From: an uncultured Gammaproteobacteria bacterium
Lineage (GTDB): Bacteria > Pseudomonadota > Gammaproteobacteria > CAYNNN01
Length of the DNA: 64,000 bases
Reading direction: 5' to 3'
NCBI GenBank assembly: GCA_964398665.1
Contig: CAYNNN010000002.1
Coordinates: 929 to 64,928, forward strand
The translations under genes and the position numbers were made by a program. The first letter of the stretch is position 1, and each line of letters starts with the position of its first letter. The notes under the pieces are model-generated. The model made no database searches, had not been told where the DNA came from, and saw only the letters and a list, made by a program, of their open reading frames with translations. Shown here piece after piece: positions 8,313 through 61,200 of this stretch.

Positions 8313-8670
8313 ATCCTTGCTGGCGGTTGTCGAACTGGGCGGCTACCCCGATTTCAGCCGCCTGTATGCCGAGGCCGGCTTTGAACCCGTGACGGTGACA
8401 TCCGTACGCAAGGCCCTGAGCAAGCTCAAAACCCGGCAGTTTGCCGCTGTGGTGGCCGAGTTCAATTTTCAATCAGATTTCCGTGACCGCACCAGCAGCC
8501 TGGAAAGTCTGCTGGCTGTGTTGCAGCAGCATGGCCCGGATACTGTGGTCATCTTGCTGTATGAACCCGAACACCGGGTTGCGCTGGACCGCCTGCTGGC
8601 GCGCTTTCCAGTGGCGCATACCCTGAGCCTGCCGGTGGCGGCAGCCCAATTGCAGGCAGCCCTGCCCTAA
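8302..8670 (+). CDS. Hypothetical protein, possibly a degenerate CheY-like receiver fold
   Basis: ATG at 8302 overlaps the PfkB stop. Alternating hydrophobic beta/alpha pattern (LLAVVELGG ... FAAVVAEFNF ... VVILLYEP) with no phospho-accepting Asp. Inference only. Confidence 0.35.
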   Translation: MNSKSLLAVVELGGYPDFSRLYAEAGFEPVTVTSVRKALSKLKTRQFAAVVAEFNFQSDFRDRTSSLESLLAVLQQHGPDTVVILLYEPEHRVALDRLLARFPVAHTLSLPVAAAQLQAALP

Positions 8671-40959: not shown

Positions 40960-41004
40960 GACTGGATTGGAACAGGGTTTGTGGAGTTAGGGCGGGAGCA
41001 GGCA

Positions 41005-47000: not shown

Positions 47001-48612
47001 ATTTGCCGAGTTCGATCCGCTGGAAATGGATCGCTACTCCACGATGCAACAACTTTCCAGGGCACTGAGCGAAAGCGTCTCGGATCTGGATAACCTGCAT
47101 CGGCTCATGAGCGACAGCGGGCGCGATGCCGAAACCTTGCTGCTGCAACAATCGCGGGTCAATACCGAGTTGCAGGAAGGACTGATGCGCACCCGCATGG
47201 TGCCCTTTGCCAGTCTGGTACCCCGGCTCCGGCGTCTGGTGCGGCAAACTGCCGATAGCGTCGGGAAGCGGGCTGAACTGGATGTCATTGGAGCCGAAGG
47301 TGAAATGGATCGCACCATTCTGGATAGAATCACGGCACCGCTGGAACATTTGCTGCGCAATGCCCTGGCGCACGGGGTGGAAACACCGGCTGACCGGGTT
47401 GCGGTCGGTAAGCCGGAGGTGGGCAAAATCACGCTGTTGCTGGCACGTGAAGGTGCTGAAATCGTCATCGAGATCGCTGATGACGGACGTGGCATAGATC
47501 CGACAGCCATCCGCCGCAAGGCCATCCAGATGGGGTTGCTGCGCCCGGAGACGGTGATTAGTGAAGTGGAATTGATTCAGTTCATTCTGGAATCCGGCTT
47601 CAGCACCGCCAAAGATGTGAGCCAGATCGCGGGCCGGGGCGTCGGGATGGACGTGGTGAACAGCGAGATCAAGCAAATGGGCGGCACGCTGGGCATCAAA
47701 TCCCAGGTTGGCGTAGGCAGCCGGTTCATCATCAACCTGCCGCTGACCCTGGCCATCAACCAGGCCATCATGGTCTATGTCGGGGAAGACGTCTTTGCTG
47801 TTCCGCTGGCCGCCCTGGAAGGCATCATCCGGGTTTCCCAGCAGGACCTGCTACGTTGTTACGAAAGCGACCGCGAGCATATCCAGTATGCAGGCAAGGA
47901 CTATCAGGTCAAACACCTGGGTAGCTTGCTGGGCACGATGGAAAACAAGTTCCCCGAACAGAAACGCTGGTATCCCCTGCTGCTGGTGCGCAGTGGTGAT
48001 TACCGCGTTGGTCTGCATGTGGAGGGCTTGCTGGGCAACCGCGAAGTGGTGATCAAGCCGGTCGGGCCGCAATTGAGTACGGTGCGCTGGATTTCAGGCG
48101 CGACCATTCTGGCCGATGGCCGGGTGGTCTTGATTCTTGATATCGGCACCATCTCCCGGATGCGCACCACGGTGCGGACCGTGGCGGAAGCCGACACGCG
48201 GGTACCGGCCGTTGAGGAGGCACCGCCGGTTCGCCAGGTCAAGGTACTGGTGGTGGACGACTCCATCACGGTGCGTAAGGTGACGGGTCGGGTACTGGAG
48301 CGCTACGGGATGGAAGTCATGACCGCCAAAGACGGTATCGAAGCCCTGACCACGCTCCAGGAATATATCCCGGACATCATGTTGCTGGATATTGAAATGC
48401 CGCGCATGGACGGATTTGAACTGGCCCGGAACATCCGTAATGCCGAACATCTGAAGCATATCCCCATCATCATGATCACCTCGCGTACGGGAGACAAACA
48501 CCGGCAACGGGCTATGGAGCTGGGTGTGAACGACTATATCGGCAAACCCTTCCAGGAAGCTGATTTAATCTCACATATCAATGCCTTGGTTGGAAGTGGG
48601 GCTACAGCATGA
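41005..48612 (+). CDS. chpA: Chemosensory pili hybrid histidine kinase ChpA/PilL, 2,537 aa, with multiple Hpt-like domains, CheA catalytic core, CheW domain and C-terminal receiver
   Basis: At least six Hpt-like cores (FHTLKGSGRMAGA, FHTLKGSGRMVGA, IHTLHGSAHMAGA, LHTLKGSARLVGF, LHTLKGSARLVGL, LHTLKGGARLVGI). HATPase motifs (GRGIDP, GRGVGMDVV, GVGSRF), CheW-like region and REC (VLVVDDSITVRK...MLLDIEMP). Start trimmed to the ATG at 41005. Confidence 0.9.
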   Translation: MSHGALNWVKKELDETLKLASQTLEEYVEGGRDAALLQQSALHLHQAYGTLQMVEVYGAAQLAEELEITLQALARGELGQAGHDAYEVLARAVLQLQEYLNRVHAGQADTPAVLLPLLNDLRALRGVALLSEGALFPLDLTPLETQPPGVKPARLAAPQAAAMVKRLRTFYQLGLLGWLRGQEMDKNLGQLEQSLLQLAQLATQASVAHLWWISAGLVEALRRRGLDSTTAVRVLLGQIDRQIRRLSEENEAALVREPATGLYKNLLYYLAQARVQSTLITQIKQLFALDTLLPGIAQLESARNNLLSPDAGVMHTVLTAIKEDMAGVKDGLETFARQTQAPEALRPLLDALRKVSDTLGLLGYGALRRRVQQQILRLQQLMEAGGEIDETALMQVAGELLYVESSLGGAPTAVHAANTAVYASHEDEPLVPEAEFQTVRAVTMREVMLDLSKAKDGVIAFNSTGQKELLELAPQYLRGVRGVMEMMELGRAAAVVLRIADYIQQELLTAAHLTPKVVEWVAEALSGVEYYLETVQQQLPDHTDSLGQAEARLANLTQGPVSEATVSPPPVPTAPVVQAPPTISAGAAVPQPEVTPTSTLPVWPADQIDEEIFDIFLEEANEVVASLQTYWPRWRADAEQRDALVTVRRGFHTLKGSGRMAGAHGLGELAWAAESLLNRVLDGTLTASQMTGQALDAVVDLLPQMLEALARHQAVPDQAPVLAAHVQALVRGEASTLAPAQRDTGLVVTEAAPGPDLAPDTTTLAAAPIAPDEVDTLIVDLDSGAAEAPVTGPEATAEPEAAPPAVTAPPVPQPLVLDVDDEILEIFLEEAQEVVGTLNEYFPQWRADTQDHEALTTIRRGFHTLKGSGRMVGAKVLGELAWSIENMLNRVLDGSIQPGPVLMATIEASISAFPVLLESLQARLQATLDVEPIAQRAHALSRGEVVAEPVVAPPVSTPVAASDVSPVTEPVPVAEPEFIWDVPAESVPATLPVADVAPAEAEPDWVSPVLADPAPVLEWELPAPVAKPEAVAPADEALPEPLATDTVVQLPVPSEIPLPPTHTAEEPPAIPEAAVEEVPAPVATPLPATALDDLDESDARPEPLLMDEALYEIFSIEAKAHLAVIEEFLLHCQQSAVPCRGSDVLVRAIHTLHGSAHMAGAKDIAEISGGLESALRGYIAHQMSFDAALLGLLESGLEKVAQALACINQPDKRPPNAQPLIEALRRFNEAMQARLAGANAVTTAPAEVQPVAEHAVASGLPPAPDEELLAIFLSENQDILEALNTAVDAWRDRTHDSLLAMELQRLLHTLKGSARLVGFQSMGDLAQALEGLVGASIQRHEPLPQQALALVHTALERLADMLDEIAQGATPGPADTLVAELYAQGVTPVTYEETALAPVVVPEGTLPDEAAAVIPTAEETALAPVVVPEDTLPDEAAAVIPTAEDAVLADTEAAPPSNWPEAHGVDGQLSDAVPDDRAQAALPEAEQMPEPVLPPVVELQPVVQETHPVAALEEPVSEWVMPESAPALRAMPESGAEALPEPMAEAVPPSDAATEATPAPSAQLTDIPEAWVPAEVTPAVMSAGSPLSVGGTQPLALPGEDTEVETYDTALIEVFQDEGKELLDGLDQAFGLWRAEPEDTTQHALIQRLLHTLKGSARLVGLMGVGDLTHALETLIIEVQQGRKPADAEIMHLAQQALDHYALTFERLLRGETLYRPQRLIQALEQQGQSIVTAPTPAPVPPPVILPVVEVEGDLDGEYDVNLINIFLEESRDILDNLEPVFTAWCEIPQDAAVSAQFKRALHTLKGGARLVGITSLGDLSHALETAVNTVGEQNLAVDPPLQALLRRTLDVINAALEVVARGDRARRPSALIHALERIGQAADAEVTQVPVPSKSVPPPEAVRPQPAAEPATPTAASATRTPQEQVRVRADLLDNLVNFAGEISIYRARLEQQWSLLKFNLAEFEQTTRRLREQLRKMELETEAQVLFRYEREGGHEKFAEFDPLEMDRYSTMQQLSRALSESVSDLDNLHRLMSDSGRDAETLLLQQSRVNTELQEGLMRTRMVPFASLVPRLRRLVRQTADSVGKRAELDVIGAEGEMDRTILDRITAPLEHLLRNALAHGVETPADRVAVGKPEVGKITLLLAREGAEIVIEIADDGRGIDPTAIRRKAIQMGLLRPETVISEVELIQFILESGFSTAKDVSQIAGRGVGMDVVNSEIKQMGGTLGIKSQVGVGSRFIINLPLTLAINQAIMVYVGEDVFAVPLAALEGIIRVSQQDLLRCYESDREHIQYAGKDYQVKHLGSLLGTMENKFPEQKRWYPLLLVRSGDYRVGLHVEGLLGNREVVIKPVGPQLSTVRWISGATILADGRVVLILDIGTISRMRTTVRTVAEADTRVPAVEEAPPVRQVKVLVVDDSITVRKVTGRVLERYGMEVMTAKDGIEALTTLQEYIPDIMLLDIEMPRMDGFELARNIRNAEHLKHIPIIMITSRTGDKHRQRAMELGVNDYIGKPFQEADLISHINALVGSGATA
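45178..45333 (+). repeat. Near-perfect in-frame 78-bp tandem duplication (2 copies) inside a chpA linker
   Basis: Unit 1 at 45178-45255 and unit 2 at 45256-45333 differ at ~2-3 nt. They encode EETALAPVVVPE(G/D)TLPDEAAAVIPTA twice. Confidence 0.85.
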
Positions 48613-49115
48613 TCAGTCAGCGTCCCAGTCTGGCAGCTGCGGTGGCAAAAGCAGGCGCCCTACGCTGTCTGTTGCTACCCATAGAAGACGGACATTTGAT
48701 TCTGCCCAATGCGGCAGTGCGGGAAGTCTTGGGCTACCGGCAGGTACAGCCGCTGGCCGGCGCTCCCAACTGGCTGCAAGGCATGTTGACCTGGCATCAG
48801 CAACGTGTGCCGGTTGTGAGCTTTGAGGCTCTGTGTGGCCGGGCTTGGCGTGGCCAGGGAGAACGCAAGCGGATCGTAATTTGTGCGGCCCTACGCGGCA
48901 AAGCCGATCTGGGTTTTTTCGGGATTGTGGCGGCAAACAACCCCAAATTACTGAAAACAGAGGAAGAATCAATCAAGCCCATTACTGGCCACACAGCGCA
49001 TGCCCCGGTCGTACTGCAATGGGCCTTGGCCTTTGGCGAAGAAGTGATGATTCCCGACCTGGAACGCATTGAAGACTTGCTGCGAGAACAGCGCCGGGTT
49101 GGTGTGAAATTATGA
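48609..49115 (+). CDS. chpC: CheW-like protein ChpC
   Basis: ATGA overlap with the chpA stop. CheW-like domain. Position as in pilGHIJ-chpA-chpC clusters. Confidence 0.6.
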   Translation: MISQRPSLAAAVAKAGALRCLLLPIEDGHLILPNAAVREVLGYRQVQPLAGAPNWLQGMLTWHQQRVPVVSFEALCGRAWRGQGERKRIVICAALRGKADLGFFGIVAANNPKLLKTEEESIKPITGHTAHAPVVLQWALAFGEEVMIPDLERIEDLLREQRRVGVKL

Positions 49116-49166
49116 TCTTCATTGACTTCAGACTGCTAGCCCGTTAGAATCCCGGTTCCCCCCTCG

Positions 49167-49241
49167 GGGCGATTAGCTCAGCGGTAGAGCACTGCCTTCA
49201 CACGGCAGGGGTCGCAGGTTCGAACCCTGCATCGCCCACCA
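49167..49241 (+). tRNA. tRNA-Val (anticodon CAC), with encoded CCA
   Basis: Manual fold. Acceptor GGGCGAT/ATCGCCC, D-stem GCTC/GAGC, anticodon stem CTGCC/GGCAG with loop TTCACAC (anticodon CAC), T-arm GCAGG-TTCGAAC-CCTGC, discriminator A. Close to E. coli tRNA-Val. Confidence 0.85.
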
Positions 49242-49425
49242 TCCATATCAATGCGTTATCGCCTTATTCTTGCTGCGGGTAGCGCGTTACCGTGACTGGA
49301 TCGTGACTCAAACGCCCTATAGCCCGCACTCGTGGAACTATAGGCCGTGCTACACCACTCCATGGCCCTGTCGCCCCCGTGCGGTGCGATTTTTGTATTG
49401 ATTCAATGAATTATAATGGTATTTT

Positions 49426-50022
49426 ATGATACGTTCTAGCCGTCTGGGCTTGGGGCTGGCCTTGCTGGGCCTGCTGCTGACGATTCCCTACGGCCTGGAC
49501 GCATTGGGACAGTGGGTCCGTCTGCAGGAATCCCTAGACCGGGTGGATGCGCTGTTGCTGCTACCCGGAGACCGCAACACGGCCCCTCAGGCTGTTGCCC
49601 GCTTCTATCACCAAGGCTTGACGCATCGGGTGCTGCTGATTGCCCGTCAGCCTACCCGACTGGAACGACTGGGGTTGCGTCCCCCACGACATGAGCGCCA
49701 GCGCCAGGCGCTGCTGGCGCTGGGGGTTTCAGCTTCAGACATTGACGTGTTGGGGCCACCGGTCAGCCACGACCCCGCCAGCGGCAGCGTGCTGGCCCGT
49801 TGGGCCAAGGCGCAGCTTCAACCACAGCGGGTGCTGGCGGTGACCGCTGAGCCTTGGGGACGCTTGTGGCGCCACGATCTGCGCCAGGGTTTGGGGCCAA
49901 CATCACTGGAATTGGCCCTCTGGAGTGCCCCGTCCAGCCGCTTTGGCCCGCACTGGTGGCGAAGTCGGCATGGCCTGATGGCGTATTTCGATGCTTTTGT
50001 GTTAGGGTTGCGCCGCCTTTAG
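49426..50022 (+). CDS. Hypothetical membrane-anchored protein, tentatively DUF218/YdcF(ElyC)-like
   Basis: N-terminal TM or signal segment. LLLPGDRNTAPQAVARFYHQGLTHRVLLIA loosely resembles the DUF218 N-terminal block that is clear in the paralog at 52179. Weak. Confidence 0.35.
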   Translation: MIRSSRLGLGLALLGLLLTIPYGLDALGQWVRLQESLDRVDALLLLPGDRNTAPQAVARFYHQGLTHRVLLIARQPTRLERLGLRPPRHERQRQALLALGVSASDIDVLGPPVSHDPASGSVLARWAKAQLQPQRVLAVTAEPWGRLWRHDLRQGLGPTSLELALWSAPSSRFGPHWWRSRHGLMAYFDAFVLGLRRL

Positions 50023-50042
50023 CGCAGTGCTGATGAGTTGCC

Positions 50043-51788
50043 ATGAGTCTTATTCTGGGTCTGAATGCCTTTCACGGCGATGCCTCCGCCTGTCTTGTCC
50101 AGGACGGCGAACTGCTGGCCGCAGCTGAAGAAGAACGTTTTTGCCGTATCAAGCACTGGGCCGGATTCCCCAGCCAGGCGATTCGTTATTGCCTGGCACA
50201 GGCCGGCGTGGAACTGCACCAGATCGATCACATTGCCCAAAACAGCGATCCGGGCGTGCATTGGCCGCGCAAGCTCGCCTACGCCCTGCTGCGACGGCCC
50301 AGCCTGGGCCTGCTGCGCGACCGCCTGCGCAATCGTCAGCAGCGGGCCAGCCTGCCTGCCCTGTTTGCCCGGCATTTTCCCGATCAAACGGTCCGGGCCC
50401 AGTGGCATACGGTAGAGCATCATTATGCCCACCTGGCCTCGGCCTTTCTGGTCTCACCCTTTCGGGAAGCCGTGGTCGTCTCGGTAGATGGCTTTGGTGA
50501 TTTTGCCAGCGCAGCCTGGGGCGTCGGACACGGTAATGATCTGCGCCTGGACGGCCAGGTTTATTTTCCGCACTCCCTGGGAATGTTTTATCAGGCCCTG
50601 ACCCAGTACCTGGGTTTTCCCAATTATGGCGATGAATACAAAGTGATGGGCTTTGCACCCTATGGCCAGCCCCGTCACGTCGCGGCCCTGCGCCAGGTGC
50701 TGCGCTTATTGCCAGACGGCAGCTTTCGGCTCAATCTGCGTTATTTCCGTCATGGCCGTGAGCAGGTTCCCTATCGCTGGGAAGATGGCAGTCCTCAGGT
50801 CGGAACCTTGTATACCCCGGCGCTGGAACAACTGCTGGGGCCTGCCCGGCAGCCGGGTACTCCATTGACGGAACGCCATCAGGATCTGGCGCATTCCGTA
50901 CAGGCGGTCTACGAAGAAGCCCTGTTTCACCTGCTACGTGCCCTGCACCGACGTTACGGCCTCGACGCCGTGGCGCTGGCGGGTGGCTGTGCCATGAATT
51001 CGGTCGCCAACGGCAAAATCACCGTGCAGACACCCTTTCGCCAGGTCTATGTCCAGGCTGCTGCCGGGGACGCCGGGGGGGCCTTGGGCGCTGCTTATGC
51101 CGTGGCACAACGCCTGGGCGAGGCCGCCCGATTTTATCTCGAACACGCCTATTGGGGACCAGCGGCAGACAGCGAGGCCATCGCGGCCTTGCTTGCGGAT
51201 CAGACTGCGGCCTTGCAGGCTGCCGGTTGTTACTGGGTCCAGCTACCAGAGGCCGATCTGGTGGCTCATACCGCGCAAGCCCTGGTACAAGGCAAGGTCG
51301 TCGGCTGGTTTCAAGGTCGCATGGAATGGGGGCCCCGCTCCTTGGGCGCACGTTCGATTCTGGCTGACCCACGCCGCAGCGACATGAAGGACATTCTCAA
51401 TCACAAGATCAAGCGCCGGGAGTCATTTCGGCCCTTTGCCCCGGCCATCCTGCGCGAAGCGACAGCTGAGTGGTTTGAACTGGATCTGCCGGTACCGTTC
51501 ATGAGCCAGGTCTTGACAGTGCGGCCCGAAAAACGCGCATTGATCCCGGCAGTCACCCACGTGGATGGCAGTGGCCGGCTACAAACGGTCGAACGATTGA
51601 GCAATCCGCGCTACCATGAGCTTATCCGGCAATTTGGCACGCTCACCGGGGTACCCATTTTGCTTAATACCTCGTTTAACGAAAATGAGCCGGTCGTCTG
51701 TCGGCCTCAGGAGGCCCTGGACTGTTTTTTACGCACCCAGATGGACGTGCTGGTTCTGGGTGATTGGTTGATTCGGCGGGGCACCTGA
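50043..51788 (+). CDS. Carbamoyltransferase (NodU/CmcH family)
   Basis: N-terminal ILGLNAFHGDASACLVQDGELLAAAEEERFCRIKH (YgjD/Kae1-like fold of NodU) and C-terminal carbamoyltransferase domain. 581 aa. Confidence 0.85.
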   Translation: MSLILGLNAFHGDASACLVQDGELLAAAEEERFCRIKHWAGFPSQAIRYCLAQAGVELHQIDHIAQNSDPGVHWPRKLAYALLRRPSLGLLRDRLRNRQQRASLPALFARHFPDQTVRAQWHTVEHHYAHLASAFLVSPFREAVVVSVDGFGDFASAAWGVGHGNDLRLDGQVYFPHSLGMFYQALTQYLGFPNYGDEYKVMGFAPYGQPRHVAALRQVLRLLPDGSFRLNLRYFRHGREQVPYRWEDGSPQVGTLYTPALEQLLGPARQPGTPLTERHQDLAHSVQAVYEEALFHLLRALHRRYGLDAVALAGGCAMNSVANGKITVQTPFRQVYVQAAAGDAGGALGAAYAVAQRLGEAARFYLEHAYWGPAADSEAIAALLADQTAALQAAGCYWVQLPEADLVAHTAQALVQGKVVGWFQGRMEWGPRSLGARSILADPRRSDMKDILNHKIKRRESFRPFAPAILREATAEWFELDLPVPFMSQVLTVRPEKRALIPAVTHVDGSGRLQTVERLSNPRYHELIRQFGTLTGVPILLNTSFNENEPVVCRPQEALDCFLRTQMDVLVLGDWLIRRGT

Positions 51789-51827
51789 TCCCGGGTGCTT
51801 GAAATCAGAGAGTTGCTGGAGATCATC

Positions 51828-52178
51828 ATGTGGCATAAAGCGTTAATGGGTTTGAGTCTGATTCTGGGCGTCAGCTTTGCCGCCCCGGCCACAGCCGGCT
51901 GGCCCGGCATTTACTGGTGGCAGAAGGAAGTCGGTGGCTCGGTACGCGCCTGCGTATCACGGGCCAAAAGCGTCTATGACGAAGAGGGCTTTTACGATAT
52001 CAAGGTCGATAGTCATGAGACCAGCGATGTCGGTTCGGTCTGGGCACATACCGATAACGAAGCTTCCTACATCATCTGCCGCAAGACGGACAGTGGCGTG
52101 GTTGCCACCGTGGTGGTCAGCGGTGACAATAACAAAAATATCAAGCGCTACCGCGACCTGCTCCGCGACGCGATGTAG
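51828..52178 (+). CDS. Small secreted hypothetical protein (116 aa). By eye it looks less GC-rich than its neighbours.
   Basis: Signal peptide (LMGLSLILGVSFAAPATA). Its stop abuts the GTG start of the next gene. No recognisable family. Confidence 0.4.
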   Translation: MWHKALMGLSLILGVSFAAPATAGWPGIYWWQKEVGGSVRACVSRAKSVYDEEGFYDIKVDSHETSDVGSVWAHTDNEASYIICRKTDSGVVATVVVSGDNNKNIKRYRDLLRDAM

Positions 52179-52802
52179 GTGTTTTGCCTGACGGTACGCC
52201 TTGTGCTCAGTCTGGGTGTGGCCAGCCTGCTGGGCGCAGGCTGGCTGCTGGCTGTACCTCAAGCGCTGGCGCGTGGCTGCCTGTTGCTGGAAACACTGGG
52301 TAATACCGGGGTCTGCGTAGCCTTGGCAGCACCGCTGCTGGCCAAGGCCCAGCCTGCCCGCCCCGCTGACGTGATCGTCATTCTGGGCCGTGATGGCCGG
52401 GAACGCATGAATCTGGGCGCAGAACTCTACCTGGCCGGCTTTGCGCCCCGGATCGTGCTGTTCAATTCCAGCCTGCACTATCTGCCCCATGCAGCGCAGC
52501 TGCGCCCGGCCTTGCTGCAAGTGGATGGCCCCCGTGATACCTGGGCTGAAGCCCGGCATACGGCCCGACTGGCCCGTCAGTACGGCTGGCACCGGATTCT
52601 GGTCATCTCCGACCCACCCCACCTGCGCCGGGTGCATTGGCTGTTCAAAAAAGAGTGTGCAGACAAAGCTGAGCTGGTTCTGGTCGCCACCCGGCCAACC
52701 TGGTGGCAGTGGCCGTCCTGGTGGCACTCGCAGTACGGTGCCGGTTATGTCCAGCATGAACTCGCCAGCCTGCTGTATCACCAGTTCCGGGTCGGCGGAT
52801 GA
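52179..52802 (+). CDS. DUF218 (YdcF/ElyC-family) protein
   Basis: ADVIVILGRDGRERMNLGAELYLAGFAPRIVL ... ILVISDPPHLRRV matches the DUF218 core. GTG start immediately after the upstream stop, and ATGA overlap with the next gene. Confidence 0.65.
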   Translation: MFCLTVRLVLSLGVASLLGAGWLLAVPQALARGCLLLETLGNTGVCVALAAPLLAKAQPARPADVIVILGRDGRERMNLGAELYLAGFAPRIVLFNSSLHYLPHAAQLRPALLQVDGPRDTWAEARHTARLARQYGWHRILVISDPPHLRRVHWLFKKECADKAELVLVATRPTWWQWPSWWHSQYGAGYVQHELASLLYHQFRVGG

Positions 52803-54004
52803 AACTGATTTTTATCAATCGGTACTTTTACCCCGACACCGCCCCGACCAGCCAACTCCTGGCTGACTTGGCCTTTGCGCTGGCGGCGCACGGTCATGAA
52901 GTCACCGTGCTGACCAGCCGTCAGCTTTATACCAATTCCCAGGCCCGGCTACCAACACAAGAAGCCATCGCCGGCGTTCAGATACGCCGAGTCTGGAGCA
53001 GCCGCTTTGGCCGTGCCGGACTCCTAGGCCGTGCCGGGGATTATCTGACTTTTTATTTCAGCATCACGCTCGCGCTGCTCCGTATCGCCCGACCCGGCCT
53101 GTTGGTGATTCCCAAAACCGACCCCCCCCTAATGGGCGTGCTGGCGGCCTGGATCTGTCGCCTGCGTGGAGCTACTTGCCTGCATTGGTTACAGGATATC
53201 TTCCCCGAGATTGCCGAAGCGCTGGGCTTGCGGCTAGGATTTTGGGGCCGCTGGCTGGCCGCCCGGCGCGATGCTTCGCTCAAGCACAGCCTGGGCGCAG
53301 TGGTGATTGGGCAGGATATGCTGGCTCGCCTGCAAGCCCGAGGCATTAGGGCGGATAAACTCCATGTGATTCCCAACTGGGCCGACGCCACAGCCCTGCA
53401 ACCACAATCCGGCCCCCACCCACAACGCACGGCCTGGGGCTGGGAGACCCGACTGGTGGTGGGTTATGCCGGCAACCTGGGCCGTGCCCATGAGCTGGAT
53501 ACCCTGATCACAGCCCTGATAGCCCTGGCTGATGACCCTCGCATCGGCTTTGTCTTCAGCGGGGGCGGGGCCGGCTGGCAACGATTGCGCCGTCTGCAAG
53601 CGCAGCACGGCTGGACACATGTGCGGTTTCTCCCCTATCAGCCTCTGGAAAAGCTGGCGGCTTTGCTGAGCCTCAGCGATGTCCACTTAGTGAGCTTGCG
53701 CGCCGGGCTGGAAGGCTGGCTGGTGCCGAGCAAGTTTTACGCCAGCCTGGCCGTGGCCCGACCCGTCCTCTATCTGGGACCTGCCAACAGCGAGGTAGCC
53801 CAACAAGTACTTACCTACCATTGTGGGTGGCAGGTCACACCCGGCCAGTCCGAAGCGCTGTTACACTGCCTGCGCCAGCTGGACCAGGCGACCTGTCAGG
53901 CAGCGGGACAGCGGGGCCGGGCCGCCCTGCTGTCCCACTGGGACAAGCCGCACGCCCTGGCGCGCTGGCAACATTTATTGGCACAACTGGAGCAAACCGC
54001 ATGA
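52799..54004 (+). CDS. Glycosyltransferase family 4 (GT-B, group 1)
   Basis: KLIFINRYFYPDTAPTSQLLADLAFALAAHGHEVTVLT is a GT4 N-domain. C-domain has the EX7E-like region (GWLVPSKFYASLAVARPVLYLG). Confidence 0.8.
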   Translation: MKLIFINRYFYPDTAPTSQLLADLAFALAAHGHEVTVLTSRQLYTNSQARLPTQEAIAGVQIRRVWSSRFGRAGLLGRAGDYLTFYFSITLALLRIARPGLLVIPKTDPPLMGVLAAWICRLRGATCLHWLQDIFPEIAEALGLRLGFWGRWLAARRDASLKHSLGAVVIGQDMLARLQARGIRADKLHVIPNWADATALQPQSGPHPQRTAWGWETRLVVGYAGNLGRAHELDTLITALIALADDPRIGFVFSGGGAGWQRLRRLQAQHGWTHVRFLPYQPLEKLAALLSLSDVHLVSLRAGLEGWLVPSKFYASLAVARPVLYLGPANSEVAQQVLTYHCGWQVTPGQSEALLHCLRQLDQATCQAAGQRGRAALLSHWDKPHALARWQHLLAQLEQTA

Positions 54005-55077
54005 CCCTGGACATCAGTCTCAATTTCTGGATCGCCCTGGGCCTGAGCGGCTTCTTTTGCCTGGCCCTGCAACCCCTGGCCCTGCATTGGGGCCTCGTGG
54101 ACGAACCGGATGCGCGCAAACGTCACCACGGCCCTGTACCGCTGGTCGGTGGCCTGGCGATGGTGTTGGCGCTGTTCTTTGCCCTGATGCTCACTGACCT
54201 GCCCTTGACCCCCTGGCGGCCCCTGTTTGTGGGCATCGCCATCCTGCTGCTGGTAGGATTATTCGACGATGCCCATGAACTGCACCCGCGTAACCGGCTC
54301 CTGGCCCAGATCGGCGCAGCTCTGCTGATGGTGTTCTGGGGTCAGGTGTACCTGACGGATTTGGGTGATTTAGGGGGCATGGGGCATCTGGAACTGGGCT
54401 GGCTGACAGTGCCCGTGACGGTATTTGCGGTTGTCGGGGTCATCAATGCGGTCAACCTGAGCGATGGCATGGATGGTCTGGCCGGCAGTCTGGCCCTGAT
54501 CAGCCTGGGCAGCCTGGCGGTGGTCGCAAGGGATGCCGGACAGACTGCGCCCCTGACCCTGTTACTGTTGTTTGGCGCCGTGATCCTGGGCTTTCTGGCC
54601 CTTAATTTGCGCAGTCCCTGGCTGGCGCGAGCACAGATATTCATGGGCGACGGTGGGAGCCTGATGTTGGGGTTTGTCATTGCCTGGTTTGCAGTCGCGC
54701 TGACGCAGGGCGAACAGCGGGTCCTAGCGCCCGTGACCGTCTTATGGCTCTGTGCCATCCCGTTGTTTGATACGGTAGCCAGCCTGTTGCGCCGGGCATT
54801 GAACCGGCGGGCGCTGATGCAGCCGGATCGGGGCCATTTTCATCATATCCTGCTGGCTGCCGGGCTTACGGTGCCCCAAACTTGGGGCGTCATGGTCAGC
54901 CTGGCCCTGCTCTGCGCCCTGTTTGGCCTGCAGGGCCATTATGCCCACTGGCCGGAACCCGTGATGTTTGGACTATTTTTGGCTGTATTTGCGCTATTTT
55001 TTGCCATCGTCCGCCGGGCCTGGCGAGTCAAATGCCTGCTGGGCCGGGTCCTGGCCCACGGTGATGGCCATGATTGA
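54001..55077 (+). CDS. Polyprenol-phosphate sugar-1-phosphate transferase (WecA/MraY superfamily, GT family 4 polytopic)
   Basis: Ten or more TM helices, LVDEPDARKRHHGPVPLVGG, NAVNLSDGMDGLAG (DDxxD-like) and a cytoplasmic HHILL motif region. ATGA overlap with the GT4 gene. Start trimmed to 54001. Confidence 0.8.
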   Translation: MTLDISLNFWIALGLSGFFCLALQPLALHWGLVDEPDARKRHHGPVPLVGGLAMVLALFFALMLTDLPLTPWRPLFVGIAILLLVGLFDDAHELHPRNRLLAQIGAALLMVFWGQVYLTDLGDLGGMGHLELGWLTVPVTVFAVVGVINAVNLSDGMDGLAGSLALISLGSLAVVARDAGQTAPLTLLLLFGAVILGFLALNLRSPWLARAQIFMGDGGSLMLGFVIAWFAVALTQGEQRVLAPVTVLWLCAIPLFDTVASLLRRALNRRALMQPDRGHFHHILLAAGLTVPQTWGVMVSLALLCALFGLQGHYAHWPEPVMFGLFLAVFALFFAIVRRAWRVKCLLGRVLAHGDGHD

Positions 55078-55432
55078 GCGTTTCCAGATCCGGGTGCGCG
55101 GCCATTGCATGATGCCAGTGCTGGCCGAAGGTGCCGAGGTCACCGCTGAACGGCGGGCCTGCTATTGGCCGGGTGATATTCTGGTTATCTGGACATCCGC
55201 CCATCAGCTGCGCGTCCATCGCCTGATCGCCACCTATCCCCACCCGACAGGCTGGCGCTGGATGACTCAGGCTGACGCCGCCATCCGGCCTGATGCGGCC
55301 GTCACCCACACCCAGATTCTGGGCCGGGTTCAAGGCGTACGGGTGCCCTGGCAGTGGCGCCTGTGGGCAACGGGTCGGGGCGGGTTAGCCGTGCTGCGGC
55401 GCCTACGGGCCAAGTGGCAACCGGCCCGATGA
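55064..55432 (+). CDS. S24/S26 (signal-peptidase/LexA-like) fold protein in which the nucleophile Ser of the G-x-S-M-x-P-T-L motif is replaced by Cys (GHCMMPVL)
   Basis: RVRGHCMMPVLAEGAEVTAERRACYWPGDILVIW aligns with the SPase/LexA 'GDSMxPTL ... GD.l.v' box. ATG overlaps the wecA-like stop. 120-123 aa. Confidence 0.45.
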   Translation: MAMIERFQIRVRGHCMMPVLAEGAEVTAERRACYWPGDILVIWTSAHQLRVHRLIATYPHPTGWRWMTQADAAIRPDAAVTHTQILGRVQGVRVPWQWRLWATGRGGLAVLRRLRAKWQPAR

Positions 55433-56340
55433 ATTTTGGCACGCAATTTCTGACCTGTCCGGATTTATTCCCGGCCCGACTGGCAGGAGAAAGCTGGGGG
55501 ATGGCGCGCTGTCATCTCCATCTCGCTGGCTCAACTTACGCCCTCACTGGCCTGAGTACTGCCCAACACGCCGCCCTGCAGACCCGCTTTGGCGCACTGT
55601 GCCTGGAGGCCGATACACCGGCAGTAGCCGAGCTACGGGTATATCGCGCTGATCCTGAAGATTTCTTAGGCATCCCTTATCCCGGCTGGCCCTACAGCCT
55701 GGATAGCCGCTGGCAGCCGCAGGCGGTAGAAATGGCCGGTCTGGGTCTGATGGCCCGCCTGGAGCTGGCGCCCGCCTGGCGCGGGGGCCTGTGGGTAGCC
55801 CAGGCAGATGGGCAATTGATCACCGATGGTACGCTGGAAAACGTCTTGCGGGTGCTGGTTGCCTACCGCCTGCTGGCTCAAGGTGGCCTATTGCTGCATA
55901 GCGCCGGAGTGGTGCGCCACGGTCAGGCCCTGGTGTTCTTCGGCCAGTCCGGCGCCGGGAAAAGTACCATTTCTCGCCTGAGCTTAAGCACTGGGCACAC
56001 GGTGCTCAGCGATGACATGAACGCCCTGGTCTGGCGTGACGACCGGTTCTGGGTGGAAAAACTGCCATTTGCCGGCGATCTGGGCCAAAATGCCACGGAT
56101 GCAGGCTGTTATCCCCTGCACGGCCTGTACCGGCTCATCCAGGCGCCCACACCGGCCTTGCGCGGGCTGACGCCTGCCCAAGCGGGCGCCAGGCTCCTGG
56201 CCTGTGCACCCTATGTCAACCAGAATCCGCACCAGCTCGACGCGCTGCTCACCGGGATTAACCGGATAATCAGCGTGGTAACGGTGTCGGAACTGGAATT
56301 TGCCCTAAACTCGCATTTCTGGGGTCTTTTTGAGGCTTGA
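55429..56340 (+). CDS. HprK-related kinase (HPr kinase/phosphorylase C-terminal-domain homolog) of the PqqD/rSAM-associated type
   Basis: P-loop LLHSAGVVRHGQALVFFGQSGAGKSTIS is HprK-like. ATGA overlap with the upstream gene. Followed by PqqD and rSAM/SPASM genes. Confidence 0.6.
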   Translation: MNFGTQFLTCPDLFPARLAGESWGMARCHLHLAGSTYALTGLSTAQHAALQTRFGALCLEADTPAVAELRVYRADPEDFLGIPYPGWPYSLDSRWQPQAVEMAGLGLMARLELAPAWRGGLWVAQADGQLITDGTLENVLRVLVAYRLLAQGGLLLHSAGVVRHGQALVFFGQSGAGKSTISRLSLSTGHTVLSDDMNALVWRDDRFWVEKLPFAGDLGQNATDAGCYPLHGLYRLIQAPTPALRGLTPAQAGARLLACAPYVNQNPHQLDALLTGINRIISVVTVSELEFALNSHFWGLFEA

Positions 56341-56341
56341 C

Positions 56342-56605
56342 ATGCACTATCACACCGTTTCCAGCGTGCGTTACCGCAAATTGCTGGATGAGGGGCTGGT
56401 CATTCAACAGGCGCGGGGTGAAGTCCTGGCCCTGAATGCGACCGGCTTGCGGGTGCTGGAACTGCTGGATGCCGGGCTGGCGCTAGAGGCAGTTGCAACC
56501 CAATTGGCCACCGAGTTTGCCATCACGCCCGCCGCTGCGCACACCGATGTGCAAGCTTACGTCGCAGAATTACAGGCCGCAGGCGTGCTGGCACCCGTGA
56601 CATGA
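56342..56605 (+). CDS. PqqD-family protein (RiPP recognition element / peptide chaperone)
   Basis: ~88 aa. The 'LVIQQARGEVLALNATGLRVLELLDAGLALEAVATQLATEF' pattern is typical of PqqD/RRE. Stop overlaps the rSAM start. Confidence 0.6.
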   Translation: MHYHTVSSVRYRKLLDEGLVIQQARGEVLALNATGLRVLELLDAGLALEAVATQLATEFAITPAAAHTDVQAYVAELQAAGVLAPVT

Positions 56606-57648
56606 GTGCGTTCCAGGCAGCCACAGCCAGGGCCTGGGAACAGAATGTCCTGCTCAACGTGTTGCTGGAACTGACCTATCGCTGCAACCTCGACTGTTTT
56701 TTTTGCTATAACGACTTGAATCAGCAAGGCCAGCCGCTTAGCCTGACACAATATCTGCGTCTGTTCGATGATCTGCAAGCCCTGGGTACCCTGAACCTGA
56801 CCCTTTCCGGTGGTGAACCGCTGGCGCACAAGGATTTTTTTGCCCTCGGCGCCGCAGCACGCGCACGGGGTTTCGTGATCCGGGTCAAATCCAACGGCCA
56901 TGCCCTGACCGGCAAGCTGGCCCGGCGTCTGCAAGCCGAAGTAGACCCGTTCATCATTGAGATCAGCCTGCACGGTGCCACTGCTGCGACCCACGATCGA
57001 CAAACCCGGGTTTTGGGCAGTTTTGCCCAACTCCAGCGCAACTTGCAGGAATTACGTGCCTTGGGGCTACGGGTCAAGCTCAATGCCCCGGTCACGCGCT
57101 GGAACGAGGGCGAGCTGCCCGAGATGTACGCGCTGGCGGATACATTGGGCCTGCGGATCGAATTTGATCCGCAGATTACCCTGCGGGATGACGGTGATTC
57201 TGAACCGCTGAGCATCAGTCCCAGCGCAGCCGGGGTCGCTCGGCTACACGCCCTGCACGCCGCACGTGCAGCTACAGCCGCGCCAGCCGCACCGTCGGCA
57301 CCAACGGTCAGCAAGCACTGCGGGGCCGGGTCTGCCGTCGTGGCAGTGGACCCTTACGGGAATGTGTACCCGTGTGTGCAATGGCGCCGCCGGGTGGGCA
57401 ATCTGCATCAGCAATCCATCCGGGACATCTGGCTGGGGCCTGACAGTGGCCTAGGCGAAATTCGCGCTCAAAATCAGGCGGTCAAACAGATGCTGGCCCA
57501 GCTGGGCCAGCCAACCCTGGCCTTTTGCCCCGGTTCTGCCGAACAGCAGACCGGCAGCCCGACTCAACTCTATCCTGCCGCCCGTCTGGCCTTGCAGGTG
57601 CGTCAGCTCGCCTCATCCCAAGCCTCGCACCCACACCCAGACGCCTAG
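56602..57648 (+). CDS. Radical SAM enzyme with C-terminal SPASM-type auxiliary cluster domain (peptide-modifying maturase class)
   Basis: CNLDCFFC (Cx3Cx2C) at residues ~28-35, GGEP motif, and a C-terminal Cys-rich segment (CGAGSAVVAVDPYGNVYPCVQW ... CPGS). Confidence 0.8.
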   Translation: MSAFQAATARAWEQNVLLNVLLELTYRCNLDCFFCYNDLNQQGQPLSLTQYLRLFDDLQALGTLNLTLSGGEPLAHKDFFALGAAARARGFVIRVKSNGHALTGKLARRLQAEVDPFIIEISLHGATAATHDRQTRVLGSFAQLQRNLQELRALGLRVKLNAPVTRWNEGELPEMYALADTLGLRIEFDPQITLRDDGDSEPLSISPSAAGVARLHALHAARAATAAPAAPSAPTVSKHCGAGSAVVAVDPYGNVYPCVQWRRRVGNLHQQSIRDIWLGPDSGLGEIRAQNQAVKQMLAQLGQPTLAFCPGSAEQQTGSPTQLYPAARLALQVRQLASSQASHPHPDA

Positions 57649-58284
57649 GCCGATGACCAGCAAGCCAGCGGCCCGACGGGCCCAGGGCCGCTGGGCCCAG
57701 GATGCCAGCTGCATCCCGAAAGCACCCAGAGCCAGCAGGGTCGGCAGCGTGCCCAGACCAAAACTGAGCATCAACAGGCCACCTGCCCAGGCACTACCCG
57801 CACTCAAGCTCCAGATCAACATGCTATACACCAGGCCACACGGTAAAAACCCCCAGAGCAGGCCGATCCCAAAAGCGGTCCGGCCATTGCGGATCGGTAA
57901 CCAGGCCCGGCCCAGGGGCTGAATCCGACGCCAAAGCCAGACCCCACCCTGCTCCAGATAACGCAAACCCTGCCACCAGCGACCCAGATACAAGCCCAGC
58001 GCAACCAGAAACAGGGCCGCGAGCAGTTCCAGACTACGCTGGGCCTGATGCAGCCATACAGTTGCTGCCAGCCCCTGCCCGGCTGCCCCAGCCAGGGCAC
58101 CCAAGACGGTGTAAGTGGTCAGGCGTCCGAGGTTATAAGCGCCGTGCAGGAACCAGCGAGTCTGCGGCTGCGCGGGGGCGGCGAAACTGAGCGCCGTGAC
58201 GATGCCGCCACACATGCCCACGCAATGCACTCCGCCGCTCAGGCCCGCCAGCCAGGCGCCCAGGAATAAGGGCCACTCAAACAT
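57613..58284 (-). CDS. DsbD_2 / TauE-SafE-like polytopic membrane protein (HCxxMCGG motif)
   Basis: GGVHCVGMCGG motif and ~6 TM helices. Immediately downstream of mfd on the minus strand. Confidence 0.5.
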   Translation of the reverse strand: MFEWPLFLGAWLAGLSGGVHCVGMCGGIVTALSFAAPAQPQTRWFLHGAYNLGRLTTYTVLGALAGAAGQGLAATVWLHQAQRSLELLAALFLVALGLYLGRWWQGLRYLEQGGVWLWRRIQPLGRAWLPIRNGRTAFGIGLLWGFLPCGLVYSMLIWSLSAGSAWAGGLLMLSFGLGTLPTLLALGAFGMQLASWAQRPWARRAAGLLVIGLGVWVWVRGLG

Positions 58285-61200
58285 CAGTGGGCTGTAGCTG
58301 GCGCAGCAGGTCTTCAAGCACCTGACAGCGTAACCGGGGGTCGCTCAAGTCCCGATTGACGCGCAATTTGTCCTGGCCATCCAGTTGGTACACCTTGGGC
58401 TGCTGGCGGACCAACTGCAGCAGGGCCGCAATATTGATCCGGGGCTGGGAAACAAAATGCAGCCGCAAGCCCGTGCGCTGACCGTCCACCCGCCGTAACC
58501 CCAGCGCCTGGGCCTGGAGTTTGATCCGGGCGATGCGAAACAGATTCCGGGCGGCGTCAGGCAGCGGCCCGAAACGATCGATGATTTCGGCATACAGTTG
58601 CTCCAGTGTGGCGGCGTCTTCGGCACTGGCCAGGCGCTTGTATAGCACCAGCCGGGTCTGGATATCGGGCAGGTAGTCATCTGGAAACAAGGCTGGGATG
58701 CGCAATTCCACTTCTACCCCGGTAGCAACAGGCTCAGCGTCAAGATCCAGCATCCTGCCGGCTTTCAGCAACTTGACCGCCTGCTCCAGCAACTCGGTGT
58801 ACAAGGTCAGACCCACCTCCTGCATCTGACCGCTTTGATCCTCGCCCAACAGCTCCCCGGCGCCCCGGATTTCCAGATCTTGCGTAGCCAGCAAAAAACC
58901 CGCGCCCAAATCTTCCATCTGGGTGATGGCCTCGAGCCGCTTGGCTGCATCCCCCTGTAGGTGCTGGCGGTTGGGTACCAGCAGGTAGGCATACGCCTGA
59001 TGATGCGAGCGACCTACCCGACCCCGCAGCTGGTGCAGTTGTGCCAGCCCGAGTTTGTCGGCGCGGTCGATGATGATCGTATTGGCATTGGGCACATCAA
59101 TGCCACTCTCAATGATGGTGGAACACACCAGGACCTGGCAGCGCCGATGATAGAAATCCAGCATCACCTGTTCCAGCTCTCGCTCCCGCATCTGGCCATG
59201 CGCCACCTGCACCCGCGCAAAGGGCAATAGCGCCTGAAGCTTTTCAGCGGCGTCGTGGATGGTACCAACTTCATTGTGCAGGTAGTACACCTGCCCGCCC
59301 CGCTTCAGTTCCCGCAAGGCCGCTTCCTGAATCAGTGCTGGATCATGGTTCAACAAAAAGGTCTTGATCGAATGCCGCCGGGCCGGGGGCGTGGCAATGA
59401 CGGATAAATCCCGCAGGCCCGCCAGAGCCATGTTCAGGGTGCGCGGAATCGGCGTTGCCGTCAGCGTCAGCAAATCCACTTCGGCACGCAAGGTTTTCAG
59501 GCGCTCCTTATCCCGCACCCCGAAGCGGTGCTCTTCATCCACAATCACCAGCCCCAGGCGCTTCATGCGGACGTCGGGTTGAAGCAATTTGTGGGTACCA
59601 ATCACGATATCCACCGACCCGCTGGCCAAATCTTCCAGCAGGGCAGTCTGTTCCGCCTTGCGATTGAAGCGGGATAACACCGCGATCCTGACGGGCCAGT
59701 CGGCAAACCGATCCCGGAAGGTCTGGAAATGCTGCTGCGCCAGCAGGGTAGTCGGCGCCAGCACCGCCACCTGCCTGGCATTTTGCACCGCAATAAAGGC
59801 TGCCCGCAGCGCCACTTCGGTTTTACCAAAGCCCACATCGCCGCACACCACCCGATCCATCGGTACCGGGCCACACAAATCAGCCTGCACCTGCGCGATG
59901 GCAGTAGCCTGATCCGGGGTTTCCTCAAAGGGAAAAGCGGCGCAAAAAGCCGTGAAATCGCTTTGATGCAAGCAGTGGCGCGTCCCCTGCCAGGCCGCAC
60001 GCCGGGCCTGAAGTTGCAGCAATTCTGCGGCCACATCCCGCACTTTTTCCAGGGCCCGGCGTCGCGCCCGTTGCCACTGCTCACCACCCAGCTTGTGCAG
60101 GGGTGCTGCTTCCGGCGCTGCACCGCTGTAACGGCTGATCAAGTGCAGCGCGCTGACCGGGACATAGAGTTTGTCGGAACCGGCATAGCCCACGGCAAGA
60201 AACTCACCCTCCAGACCGTCTATGGTAAGCTTTTCCAGGCCCAGATAACGCCCGACCCCATGCTGGCTATGCACTACCGGGGCGCCGACCTGCAACTCGA
60301 CCAGATCCCGCAGCAAACTGGCCGGGTCACGGGCCGCCTTGCGCCGACGCCGTTGCAACACACGCTGGCCAGCCAACTGGGCTTCCGTCACCAGCGCCAG
60401 AGACGGCTGCTGGGCAAATTCGGTCAGCAGCAGGCCCCGTTCCAGGGGAGCCACCCCTAATCCCAACTGGATAGGATTCTTTACAAATTCAGTCCACTGG
60501 GTGACGCCCTGTGGCGCCAGGCCCAGAGCCTGCAGGCGTTGCAAGGCGGCTTCCCGCTGGCCCGGCGATTCTGCCGTCAGCAAGACCCGGCCCGGAAATT
60601 GCGCGCAAAATTCCGGCAGCGCCTCCAGCGTCTGGGGCAGGTTCTGAACCGGCCGGGCAAAAGACAGGCCCGGCACGGATTCGGGCGGAGCGCCCAGCAG
60701 GATGCTGCGCGCCTGCTGCAAGGTTTGCTGCAACTCCATCGGCGCCAGATACAGCTGTTCTGGCGGCAAAGGGGGGCGCTGCACGTCACCCAGACGTTGC
60801 TGGTAACGCTGCTGGATGGCTGCCCAGAGCGTTTCGGCCTGCGCCAGCGCATCAGCCTGATAAATAAACAGAGTATTGCTAGGCAAATACGCAAAGAACG
60901 GCGCCGTAGGCTCCTCAAAAAATAGCGGCAGGTAATATTCTGCCCCGGGTACAGCCTGGCCCTGCGCGAGGTCGCGGGCTAGCAAGCAGGTGCTGCTACC
61001 CCCAAAATATTCGGCAAAATGACTGCTGAAGCGCCGTAAGCTGGCTTTATCCAGCGGAAACTCATGAGCAGGCAACAGGCGTATGGCCTGGAGTGTAGTT
61101 TGAGAGCGCTGATTTTCCACGCTAAAGGTGCGTAGACTGTCCAGCGTGTCATCCAGCCATTCCAGACGATATGCCTGATTACTCCCCATCGGATAAAGGT

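Follow-up and report, generated by a model that had tools for sequence, protein, structure and literature searches.

The window analysed here is a 64,000-nucleotide stretch of DNA from an uncultured Gammaproteobacteria bacterium (GenBank assembly GCA_964398665.1, contig CAYNNN010000002.1, positions 929 to 64,928; positions given below are those of the window). Four consecutive plus-strand genes in it (55064-57648) encode a 122-aa protein with a signal-peptidase fold (S26-like, 55064-55432), a kinase-like protein with the fold of phosphoenolpyruvate carboxykinase (PEPCK) and HprK (55429-56340), a discrete PqqD-family recognition element (56342-56605) and a radical S-adenosylmethionine (SAM) enzyme (56602-57648). 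Together they probably constitute a maturation module for a ribosomally synthesised and post-translationally modified peptide (RiPP), and they follow, on the same strand, genes for a DUF218-domain protein (52179-52802), a GT4-family glycosyltransferase (52799-54004) and a WecA/MraY-family polyprenyl-phosphate N-acetylhexosamine (HexNAc)-1-phosphate transferase, the initiating enzyme of a glycan pathway (54001-55077). An earlier note, made from the sequence alone, had described the last three genes as a peptide-maturation cassette; its peptide (RiPP) nature was borne out, but the S26-like protein belongs to it too, and the cassette is one of four genes.

The four proteins of the probable maturation module

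The S26-like protein has no Pfam match of its own and was identified by profile and fold searches; a single-sequence search returned 3 proteins only, and a profile was used instead. In the alignment of 30 homologues G13, M16, P18, G37, D38, H52, R53 and D71 are invariant and D77 is near-invariant, and the motifs G-x-[C/S]-M-x-P, GD, HR and D are kept in all; position 15 is occupied by Cys in the window protein and the other close members, 14 in all, and by Ser in the rest. The family profile matches human SEC11C (1e-14) and SEC11A (5e-14), the segments GSSMxP, vHRV and tKGDxxxxD aligning with the catalytic boxes. An AlphaFold2 model built, like that of the kinase-like protein, from database homologues (pLDDT 87) matches the fold of SipA, SEC11A/C, LexA, UmuD and lambda cI. 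The protein therefore has a signal-peptidase fold of the endoplasmic reticulum (ER)/archaeal type (S26B, SipW/SEC11-like) without a transmembrane segment. As judged from the alignment, its catalytic triad is probably Cys15-His52-Asp77, with Cys in place of the Ser nucleophile, and the protein is predicted to be a leader peptidase. Both the S26-like identity and the Cys nucleophile had been proposed in the earlier note, and profile, fold and alignment agree with them.

The spacing of C15, H52 and D77 equals that of S29, H68 and D93 in LppS, the peptidase of the linear polyphosphorylated peptide (LPP) clusters of Bacillota, which are RiPP clusters with a signal peptidase I (SpI)-like peptidase, a RiPP recognition element (RRE) and an HprK-like kinase (Popov et al., Nat Commun 2026, PMC13381572). 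LppS cleaves the leader only with the RRE protein LppB, and each of the substitutions S29A, H68A and D93A abolishes its activity (PMC13381572). The fold and the boxes GxSMxP, HR and GDxxxxD are also common to the ER/archaeal signal peptidases I (SEC11, SipW; MEROPS S26B), and the precursor peptides of related loci, described below, carry an A/V-x-A site. Unlike SEC11 and SipW, however, the S26-like protein has 122 aa and no membrane anchor, carries Cys for Ser, has RiPP enzymes as neighbours and has distant relatives fused to proteins of 2300-2600 aa. A Cys/His version of the clan-SF signal-peptidase fold would be of enzymological interest in its own right.

Fusions of this kind were observed in several loci. 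In L036 (10533-17873), L043 (10506-18317) and L058 (10473-17528), and also in L048 and L074, the peptidase-like domain, with a Ser nucleophile, forms the N-terminus of proteins of 2350-2600 aa, followed by a hydrophobic signal-anchor-like segment, a long repeat-rich region and a region similar to C25 peptidases towards the C-terminus. The fusion partner in L049 and L072 is instead a protein of ~515 aa.

The kinase-like protein was assigned by a precomputed Pfam match (PF27840 'ScmC'), the NCBIfam matches to HprK_rel_A/B and ScmC being sub-threshold. Its Walker A motif is GQSGAGKST in the window, within the family-invariant G-x-S-G-A-G-K-[ST], and an invariant LSDD is a putative metal site. The model (pLDDT 87) matches PEPCK (~1e-7) and HPr kinase/phosphatase (1e-4 to 1e-3). 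The family is large, with 556 representatives (50%-identity clusters) at E<=1e-30 and 6,502 at 1e-10, and the window protein is a predicted peptide Ser kinase. The PqqD-family protein (Pfam PqqD, 46 bits against a cutoff of 23.4) has as its top NCBIfam match the lasso-peptide PqqD chaperone (42 bits against 70), and it aligns over its full length with the PqqD proteins of loci that bear precursor genes.

The radical SAM enzyme (Pfam Radical_SAM, 68 bits; SPASM, 33.6 bits against a cutoff of 21.5) has the CX3CX2C motif at C28, C32 and C35. Its C-terminal domain, of SPASM/Twitch type, has only three Cys conserved among 22 orthologues (C240, C258 and C309) and in none of them a CX2CX5CX3C motif, so this domain does not appear to be a full seven-Cys SPASM. 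Every named NCBIfam maturase model scored far under its cutoff. The four window proteins retain every family-invariant residue.

The module and its precursor peptides in other genomes

The window proteins were compared by tblastn with 80 genome loci (kinase-like profile) and with the contigs of individual homologues. The gene order S26-like, ScmC-like (the kinase), PqqD, radical SAM recurs, with radical SAM proteins 49-61% identical to that of the window. Its carriers are Acidobacteriota (Thermoanaerobaculia, Vicinamibacteria), Thiolapillus, Chromatiaceae, Sedimenticola and Ca. Contendobacter. The variant order PqqD-radical SAM-ScmC was found in a few loci, and a locus of Chondromyces (Myxococcota) has the kinase, PqqD and radical SAM genes and no match to the S26-like protein. 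A metagenome scan for close kinase relatives returned one irrelevant short contig and no further close relatives.

Similar small open reading frames (ORFs) adjoin the module in two acidobacterial contigs and were used as the seed of a hidden Markov model (HMM). Its matches define a peptide family with members next to the module in ~25 loci; more distant loci hold weaker relatives. The precursor-bearing loci are L004-L018, L085-L088 and L090 (for example, L090 12450-12638 on the minus strand; L088 7829-8005 and ~8430-8597; the Thiolapillus peptide, L011 12204-12428). The leader reads ...[KR]x[Y/W]xxPxI[LV]x[RH]ExLEAxA. The core starts two residues before a conserved Cys, a second Cys follows 8-14 residues on, and the C-terminal residue is Ser in 24 of the 25 strong matches and in nearly all the weaker, distant ones, often as GPISS. 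No Pfam or NCBIfam model matches these peptides.

The precursor gene usually lies directly downstream, and on the same strand, of a giant gene for a Peptidase_C25 (gingipain-family) protein of 1300-1900 aa, which is the most constant neighbour of the module (L006, L007, L008, L010, L013, L017, L018, L085, L088, L090 and others). A Pfam census covered 90 neighbour ORFs of 12 genome loci: Peptidase_C25, with 10 ORFs, outnumbered every other family by a wide margin, and there were three ORFs each with NTP_transf_5 and Wzy_C, two with ABC_tran and one with Bac_transf. By tblastn, C25 was detected in 32 of the loci searched, and NTP_transf_5 (with the L087 and L090 proteins) in L005, L009, L010, L087 and L090. 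Polysaccharide genes were found near the module only in a minority of loci, some relatives having Wzy_C, Bac_transf and NTP_transf_5 adjoining it.

Some loci have further particularities. In L089 (10001-11225) the kinase-like and PqqD genes stand without a radical SAM or peptidase gene among pyrimidine-biosynthesis and housekeeping genes, indicating that this pair can occur alone. In two Contendobacter-like loci (L085 12323-12556, L094 12326-12750) a DUF1902 gene lies directly after the radical SAM gene; in L094 a HicA_toxin gene comes next, and the two look like a toxin-antitoxin pair of HicAB type.

A compact ten-gene block shared by the window and a second lineage

The last seven genes of the block, from the DUF218-domain gene to the radical SAM gene, have junctions of, in order, 0, -4, -4, -14, -4, +1 and -4 nt. 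The start of the DUF218-domain gene abuts the preceding stop (52178), the junction between the DUF218-domain and GT4 genes is a 4-nt ATGA overlap, the -14 nt at the S26-like gene becomes -8 if counted from the next ATG, and the +1 at the PqqD gene becomes -11 from a TTG. Three more same-strand genes precede them with gaps of 0-39 nt, so that the unit comprises ten genes (49426-57648), not seven. Four-base ATGA overlaps are frequent in bacterial operons; the packing is therefore that of a compact operon and not of a fusion, and it shows the ten genes to be one compact predicted operon. Four promoter-like sites were found inside the block, compared with 2.2 +/- 1.4 in shuffles, a number not above chance. 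The earlier note had correctly seen seven consecutive overlapping or abutting genes, and its idea of a single unit is in keeping with the lack of internal promoter signal above the shuffles, but its description of the genes as translationally fused has to be dropped. Its domain calls (DUF218, GT4, WecA-type, HprK-like, PqqD, radical SAM/SPASM) were upheld by Pfam and NCBIfam.

Among the loci compared, only the window and its 73%-identical relative L083/L084 have the module following WecA-like, GT4, carbamoyltransferase and DUF218 genes. Both retain the whole ten-gene block, with proteins 62-87% identical, and the flanks differ: chpA-cheW-tRNA-Val on one side and DsbD_2-mfd on the other in the window, and extra glycosyltransferases upstream and MlaD, an ABC protein and RNase E downstream in L083. 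Between the window and L083 the ratio of nonsynonymous to synonymous substitution rates (dN/dS) is 0.03-0.21 for all ten genes and 0.08-0.21 for the four module genes, with dS saturated; all ten genes are under purifying selection. The coupling to glycan genes stressed in the earlier note is consequently real and conserved, but it is not the rule of the family, whose other members pair with a precursor and C25.

The block begins with orf198 (49426-50022), whose product has an N-terminal hydrophobic segment and no match in Pfam and NCBIfam searches; it is 66-68% identical to the L083 copy, where its position is kept, with a dN/dS of 0.13. It is followed by a carbamoyltransferase gene of NodU/CmcH type (50043-51788; Pfam Carbam_trans_N 188 bits, Carbam_trans_C 240 bits; NCBIfam NodU equivalog model far under cutoff), which is 86% identical to the L083 copy (dN/dS 0.06). 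Next is orf116 (51828-52178), a small protein with conserved Cys and a predicted signal peptide of AxA type (...FAAPATA|GW), to which neither Pfam nor NCBIfam assigned a family. It is the best-conserved gene of the block (87% identity to the L083 copy, dN/dS 0.03); its ATG start at 51828 is kept in L083, and an upstream GTG extension (orf127) is not.

As for the glycan genes next to the module, the DUF218-domain protein was assigned by Pfam (44 bits), and the GT4 enzyme, which is WcaI-like, by Pfam Glyco_trans_4_4, Glyco_transf_4 and Glycos_transf_1, its match to NF007640 (WcaI family) being sub-threshold (155 bits against a cutoff of 276). The WecA-like protein matches Pfam Glycos_transf_4 (PF00953) with 131 bits and scores 270 bits against the cutoff of 326 with TIGR02380 (ECA_wecA), short of the WecA equivalog model. 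It is clearly a WecA/WbpL-type initiating transferase at family level, the models leaving the exact sugar unassigned. At the other end of the block, a convergent minus-strand gene for a DsbD_2-family membrane protein (stop end at 57613, extending up to ~58284-58317) precedes mfd and overlaps the 3' end of the radical SAM gene by 36 nt (57613-57648), which leaves no room for a downstream precursor or terminator.

Comparison with known systems

The module is outside every curated family and is related to the recently described LPP kind. The two share an SpI-like peptidase of archaeal/ER type, a discrete PqqD-type RRE and an HprK-like kinase, the kinase being likened by fold and motif and not by the sequence of LppK, and both the LPP clusters and the window module lie in polysaccharide loci. 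LPP precursors carry the motif YxxPxVLxHQxIxFETxxS, and their clusters are often inside capsule loci (PMC13381572). A position-by-position alignment with the leader of the relatives gives YxxPx[V/I]L..[Q/E].[I/L]..., the cut falling three residues ahead of the conserved +3 position; F(-3), T(-1) and the phospho-Ser(+3) of LPP correspond to A/V(-3), A(-1) and Cys(+3) in the relatives' precursors. With A/V(-3) and A(-1), cleavage is predicted at a classic A-x-A site, and the position of the LPP phospho-Ser is taken by the first conserved Cys.

There are also differences. LPP was described by its authors as restricted to Bacillota (PMC13381572), whereas the module studied here occurs in Gammaproteobacteria, Acidobacteriota and Myxococcota. 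Unlike LPP, it adds a radical SAM enzyme, its putative peptidase nucleophile is Cys and not Ser, and the relatives have a conserved C-terminal Ser and a linked giant Peptidase_C25. The MsbA-like ABC exporter of LPP is absent from the window operon, and its nucleoside triphosphate (NTP) transferase, of NTP_transf_5 type, is absent from the window; the LPP precursor adjoins its enzymes, whereas the window module has no adjacent precursor. LppK polyphosphorylates Ser3 of the core, and the final product and biological role of LPP are unknown according to its authors (PMC13381572). The statement of the earlier note that such neighbourhoods have no characterised substrate or product no longer wholly applies: experiments on the LPP clusters of Bacillota were published in 2026 (PMC13381572).

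A second point of reference is given by PadeK and PsmK, the HprK-type kinases of paeninodin and pseudomycoidin, which phosphorylate a C-terminal Ser and have a DD metal site; in pseudomycoidin a nucleotidyltransferase (PsmN) is needed to add hexose to the phosphorylated peptide (PMC6993621). Like the module, these systems have an HprK-family kinase and a PqqD RRE, their precursors end in Ser, as do those of the relatives, and their DD site resembles the invariant LSDD. What sets the module apart is the lack of a lasso cyclase (Asn-synthetase-like C protein) and of a transglutaminase-type B2 protease, the presence of a radical SAM enzyme in their place and, in the window, the lack of a nucleotidyltransferase.

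Two uncharacterised, computationally defined systems, SynChlorMet (SCM, TIGR04248-04251) and HPr-rel-A (TIGR04352/3/5), share with the module an HprK-related P-loop protein and a PqqD homologue, and SCM also a radical SAM/SPASM protein; SCM, however, has two radical SAM genes, and neither definition names a signal-peptidase-like protein. Both were rejected on their scores (score/cutoff). For SCM these were ScmC 25.6/125, ScmD 18.8/100, ScmE 76.2/400 and ScmF 71.3/400, only the broader Pfam PF27840 matching; for HPr-rel-A they were kinase A 30.4/200, kinase B 31.2/200 and PqqD_rel_X 21.8/35, and there is one kinase gene where this system needs two. The same applies to pyrroloquinoline quinone (PQQ) and mycofactocin biosynthesis (PqqD 32/46, PqqE 83/381, MftC 107/265; no partner genes in the operon), and to heme d1/NirJ and the named sactipeptide maturases, whose NCBIfam scores were far under cutoff. 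The HMM searches called for in the earlier note placed the proteins in none of the PQQ, mycofactocin, SCM, HPr-rel-A or named sactipeptide pathways. A role in anti-phage defence, by viperin or otherwise, was discarded as well: only the generic radical SAM core matches pVip models (71-76 bits, residues 22-171), the NCBIfam viperin model gives 63/180, and PADLOC found no match for the other proteins. In the literature searched, SynChlorMet, HPr-rel-A and the present clade of Gram-negatives are not mentioned.

Sactipeptide and ranthipeptide synthases such as CteB and SkfB are radical SAM/SPASM or Twitch maturases that form thioethers in RiPPs. The module resembles them in having a radical SAM core with a C-terminal Fe-S auxiliary domain together with an RRE, and the relatives' precursors have conserved Cys; the RRE of the CteB/SkfB type is fused, whereas that of the module is separate, only three auxiliary Cys are conserved and no curated maturase model reached its cutoff.

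Proposed function of the module

The reading that we favour, and consider rather likely, is that of a functional RiPP module of the LPP/paeninodin kind, extended by a radical SAM step, which acts on a peptide with a [Y/W]xxP leader, two Cys and a terminal Ser, the gene for this peptide lying elsewhere in the genome, plausibly with a C25 gene. The module would probably act in trans on this candidate peptide, and what the earlier note had offered as a fallback, action on a protein encoded elsewhere, is now the best-supported reading. In the proposed mechanism the PqqD RRE would bind the [Y/W]xxP leader, and the HprK-fold kinase would phosphorylate a Ser, most likely the C-terminal one, for which the phosphorylation of a C-terminal Ser by PadeK and PsmK is the best precedent. 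The radical SAM enzyme would modify the core; the most plausible targets are one or both of its conserved Cys, a thioether being one example of the outcome. The cytoplasmic signal-peptidase-fold enzyme (putatively Cys15/His52/Asp77) would remove the leader after the A/V-x-A site. The presence of the module and the WecA-like, GT4 and carbamoyltransferase genes in one predicted operon suggests a joint production of peptide and glycan, destined for the cell surface or matrix, and this link fits the association of LPP and paeninodin clusters with capsule loci.

Several observations weigh against this reading. The precursor HMM (25 peptides) and a regular expression for the [YW]xxP leader, applied in six frames to the 64-kb window and to 21 kb of L083, found no precursor (best E=0.08), and no C25 gene, NTP transferase or exporter was found in the window or L083. 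With three auxiliary Cys only, a sactisynthase-type reaction of the radical SAM enzyme is a guess; the phosphorylated position differs between the precedents (core Ser3 in LPP, C-terminal Ser in paeninodin), and position 3 is here a Cys; and the chemistry is something that we infer for all members of the clade. The same two precursor searches, over locus L001 in six frames, gave nothing above noise, and ~3 kb beyond the window contain neither C25 nor a precursor peptide. The report in the earlier note of a single HprK-like kinase, no nucleotidyltransferase and no precursor holds over the whole window, which is an atypical member of the clade: precursor-less and glycan-linked.

A first alternative, and the main idea of the earlier note, is that the module and the lipid-linked glycan genes build one molecule, either a ribosomal peptide with a carbamoylated HexNAc glycan (for example on phospho-Ser) or a peptide-decorated surface glycan. 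In the first form, the part played by the NTP transferase in LPP/paeninodin systems would fall to the WecA-like and GT4 enzymes. The genes overlap, are co-directional and lack an internal promoter signal, and the block, with all its genes constrained, is intact in two lineages with different chromosomal contexts. The NTP transferase, which serves hexose addition in pseudomycoidin and is found in some relatives, is missing here, where transferases for sugar phosphate, sugar and carbamoyl are present. LPP and paeninodin clusters are also inside capsule loci, and Wzy_C, Bac_transf and NTP_transf_5 adjoin the module in some relatives. A shared operon is nevertheless no proof of a covalent link; genes for a flippase, polymerase, ligase and oligosaccharyltransferase are all missing from the operon, and Wzy_C from the window; enzymes of the WecA family use polyprenyl phosphate, and no peptide acceptor is known for them; and in most relatives (Pfam census) the module is without nearby glycan genes, while no precursor was found. 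We regard a joint product as unlikely, if worth keeping in view. Somewhat more doubtful still is its most specific form, a RiPP module wired into an undecaprenyl-phosphate-linked glycan pathway and yielding a covalent peptide-glycan product, for example a Cys-crosslinked peptide whose phosphorylated C-terminal Ser bears a carbamoylated HexNAc glycan; there, the WecA-like, GT4 and carbamoyltransferase enzymes would replace the LPP/paeninodin NTP transferase.

The lack of an adjacent precursor in two independent lineages could also mean that the module has lost its cognate peptide and acts on a protein of its own operon (the secreted orf116 or the WDKPHAL tail of GT4) or on another cellular protein. 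This we consider improbable. Orf116 is the most conserved protein of the block (87% identity, dN/dS 0.03) and the GT4 tail is the sole window match to [YW]xxPx[LVIFA] near an ORF end, but the leader HMM recognises neither, the GT4 match is no more than chance would give, and the RRE, peptidase and kinase of the window keep the family-invariant residues, which argues for an unchanged type of substrate. The least probable reading, to which we give very little weight, is that the radical SAM enzyme, with its reduced Twitch-like auxiliary domain, acts on a sugar or nucleotide sugar in the manner of BtrN or BlsE and that the kinase-like protein phosphorylates a sugar. The three auxiliary Cys, a weak BlsE match (54 bits against a cutoff of 400), the small-molecule substrates of PEPCK-type folds and the position inside a glycan operon are compatible with it. 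In nearly every other locus, however, the radical SAM orthologues (49-61% identical) stand beside precursors and an RRE, mostly without glycan genes, and sugar chemistry has no use for a discrete PqqD RRE or a leader-peptidase-like enzyme.

Under the favoured reading, of a module acting on a peptide encoded elsewhere, the loci represent a large Gram-negative sister clade of the LPP logic (SpI-like peptidase, RRE, HprK-like kinase). This clade differs by its radical SAM enzyme, the Ser-to-Cys exchange of the predicted peptidase nucleophile, a precursor family of its own that is absent from Pfam and NCBIfam, and the tie to giant Peptidase_C25 surface proteins. The window is a rare rearrangement that puts the module on the same predicted transcript as a WecA-initiated glycan pathway, an arrangement that makes the long-suspected link of phosphorylated RiPPs to capsule and biofilm polymers directly testable. 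If the coupling is one of co-regulation only, the window represents no more than an atypical member of the clade that lacks a precursor; a covalent conjugate, if true, would mean that glycosylated RiPPs or peptide-decorated surface polymers can be made by a new route.

Leader-like segments and the upstream flank of the block

Two leader-like segments inside the block were examined and rejected. The N-terminus of orf127 (GTG at 51795), 'LEIRELLEIIM', was discarded on account of its extension, which is not conserved in L083. The C-terminal WDKPHAL of GT4 was the only regular-expression match, but is within chance (~8 expected by a hand estimate and 1 seen). The end of this gene (53939-54001), WDKPHALARWQHLL, fits the short RRE-binding pattern [Y/W]xxPx[LVIFA] and is kept in L083 as WDKPQALARWQQLL; the match is probably a coincidence.

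Directly upstream of the block (40981-49115) lie two ORFs of 2543 aa and 168 aa with a 4-nt overlap, by eye a ChpA-type histidine kinase with several Hpt-like repeats and a CheW-like protein, which appear unrelated to the peptide module. Between cheW and orf198 there is a tRNA-Val(CAC) gene (49167-49241) with a terminator-like hairpin downstream (49369-49386). The best promoter-like site of the region (49122-49150; sigma-70-like, TTGACT-17-TAGAAT) belongs to this tRNA gene, which, given the other context of the block in L083, may mark the point at which the ten genes were inserted.

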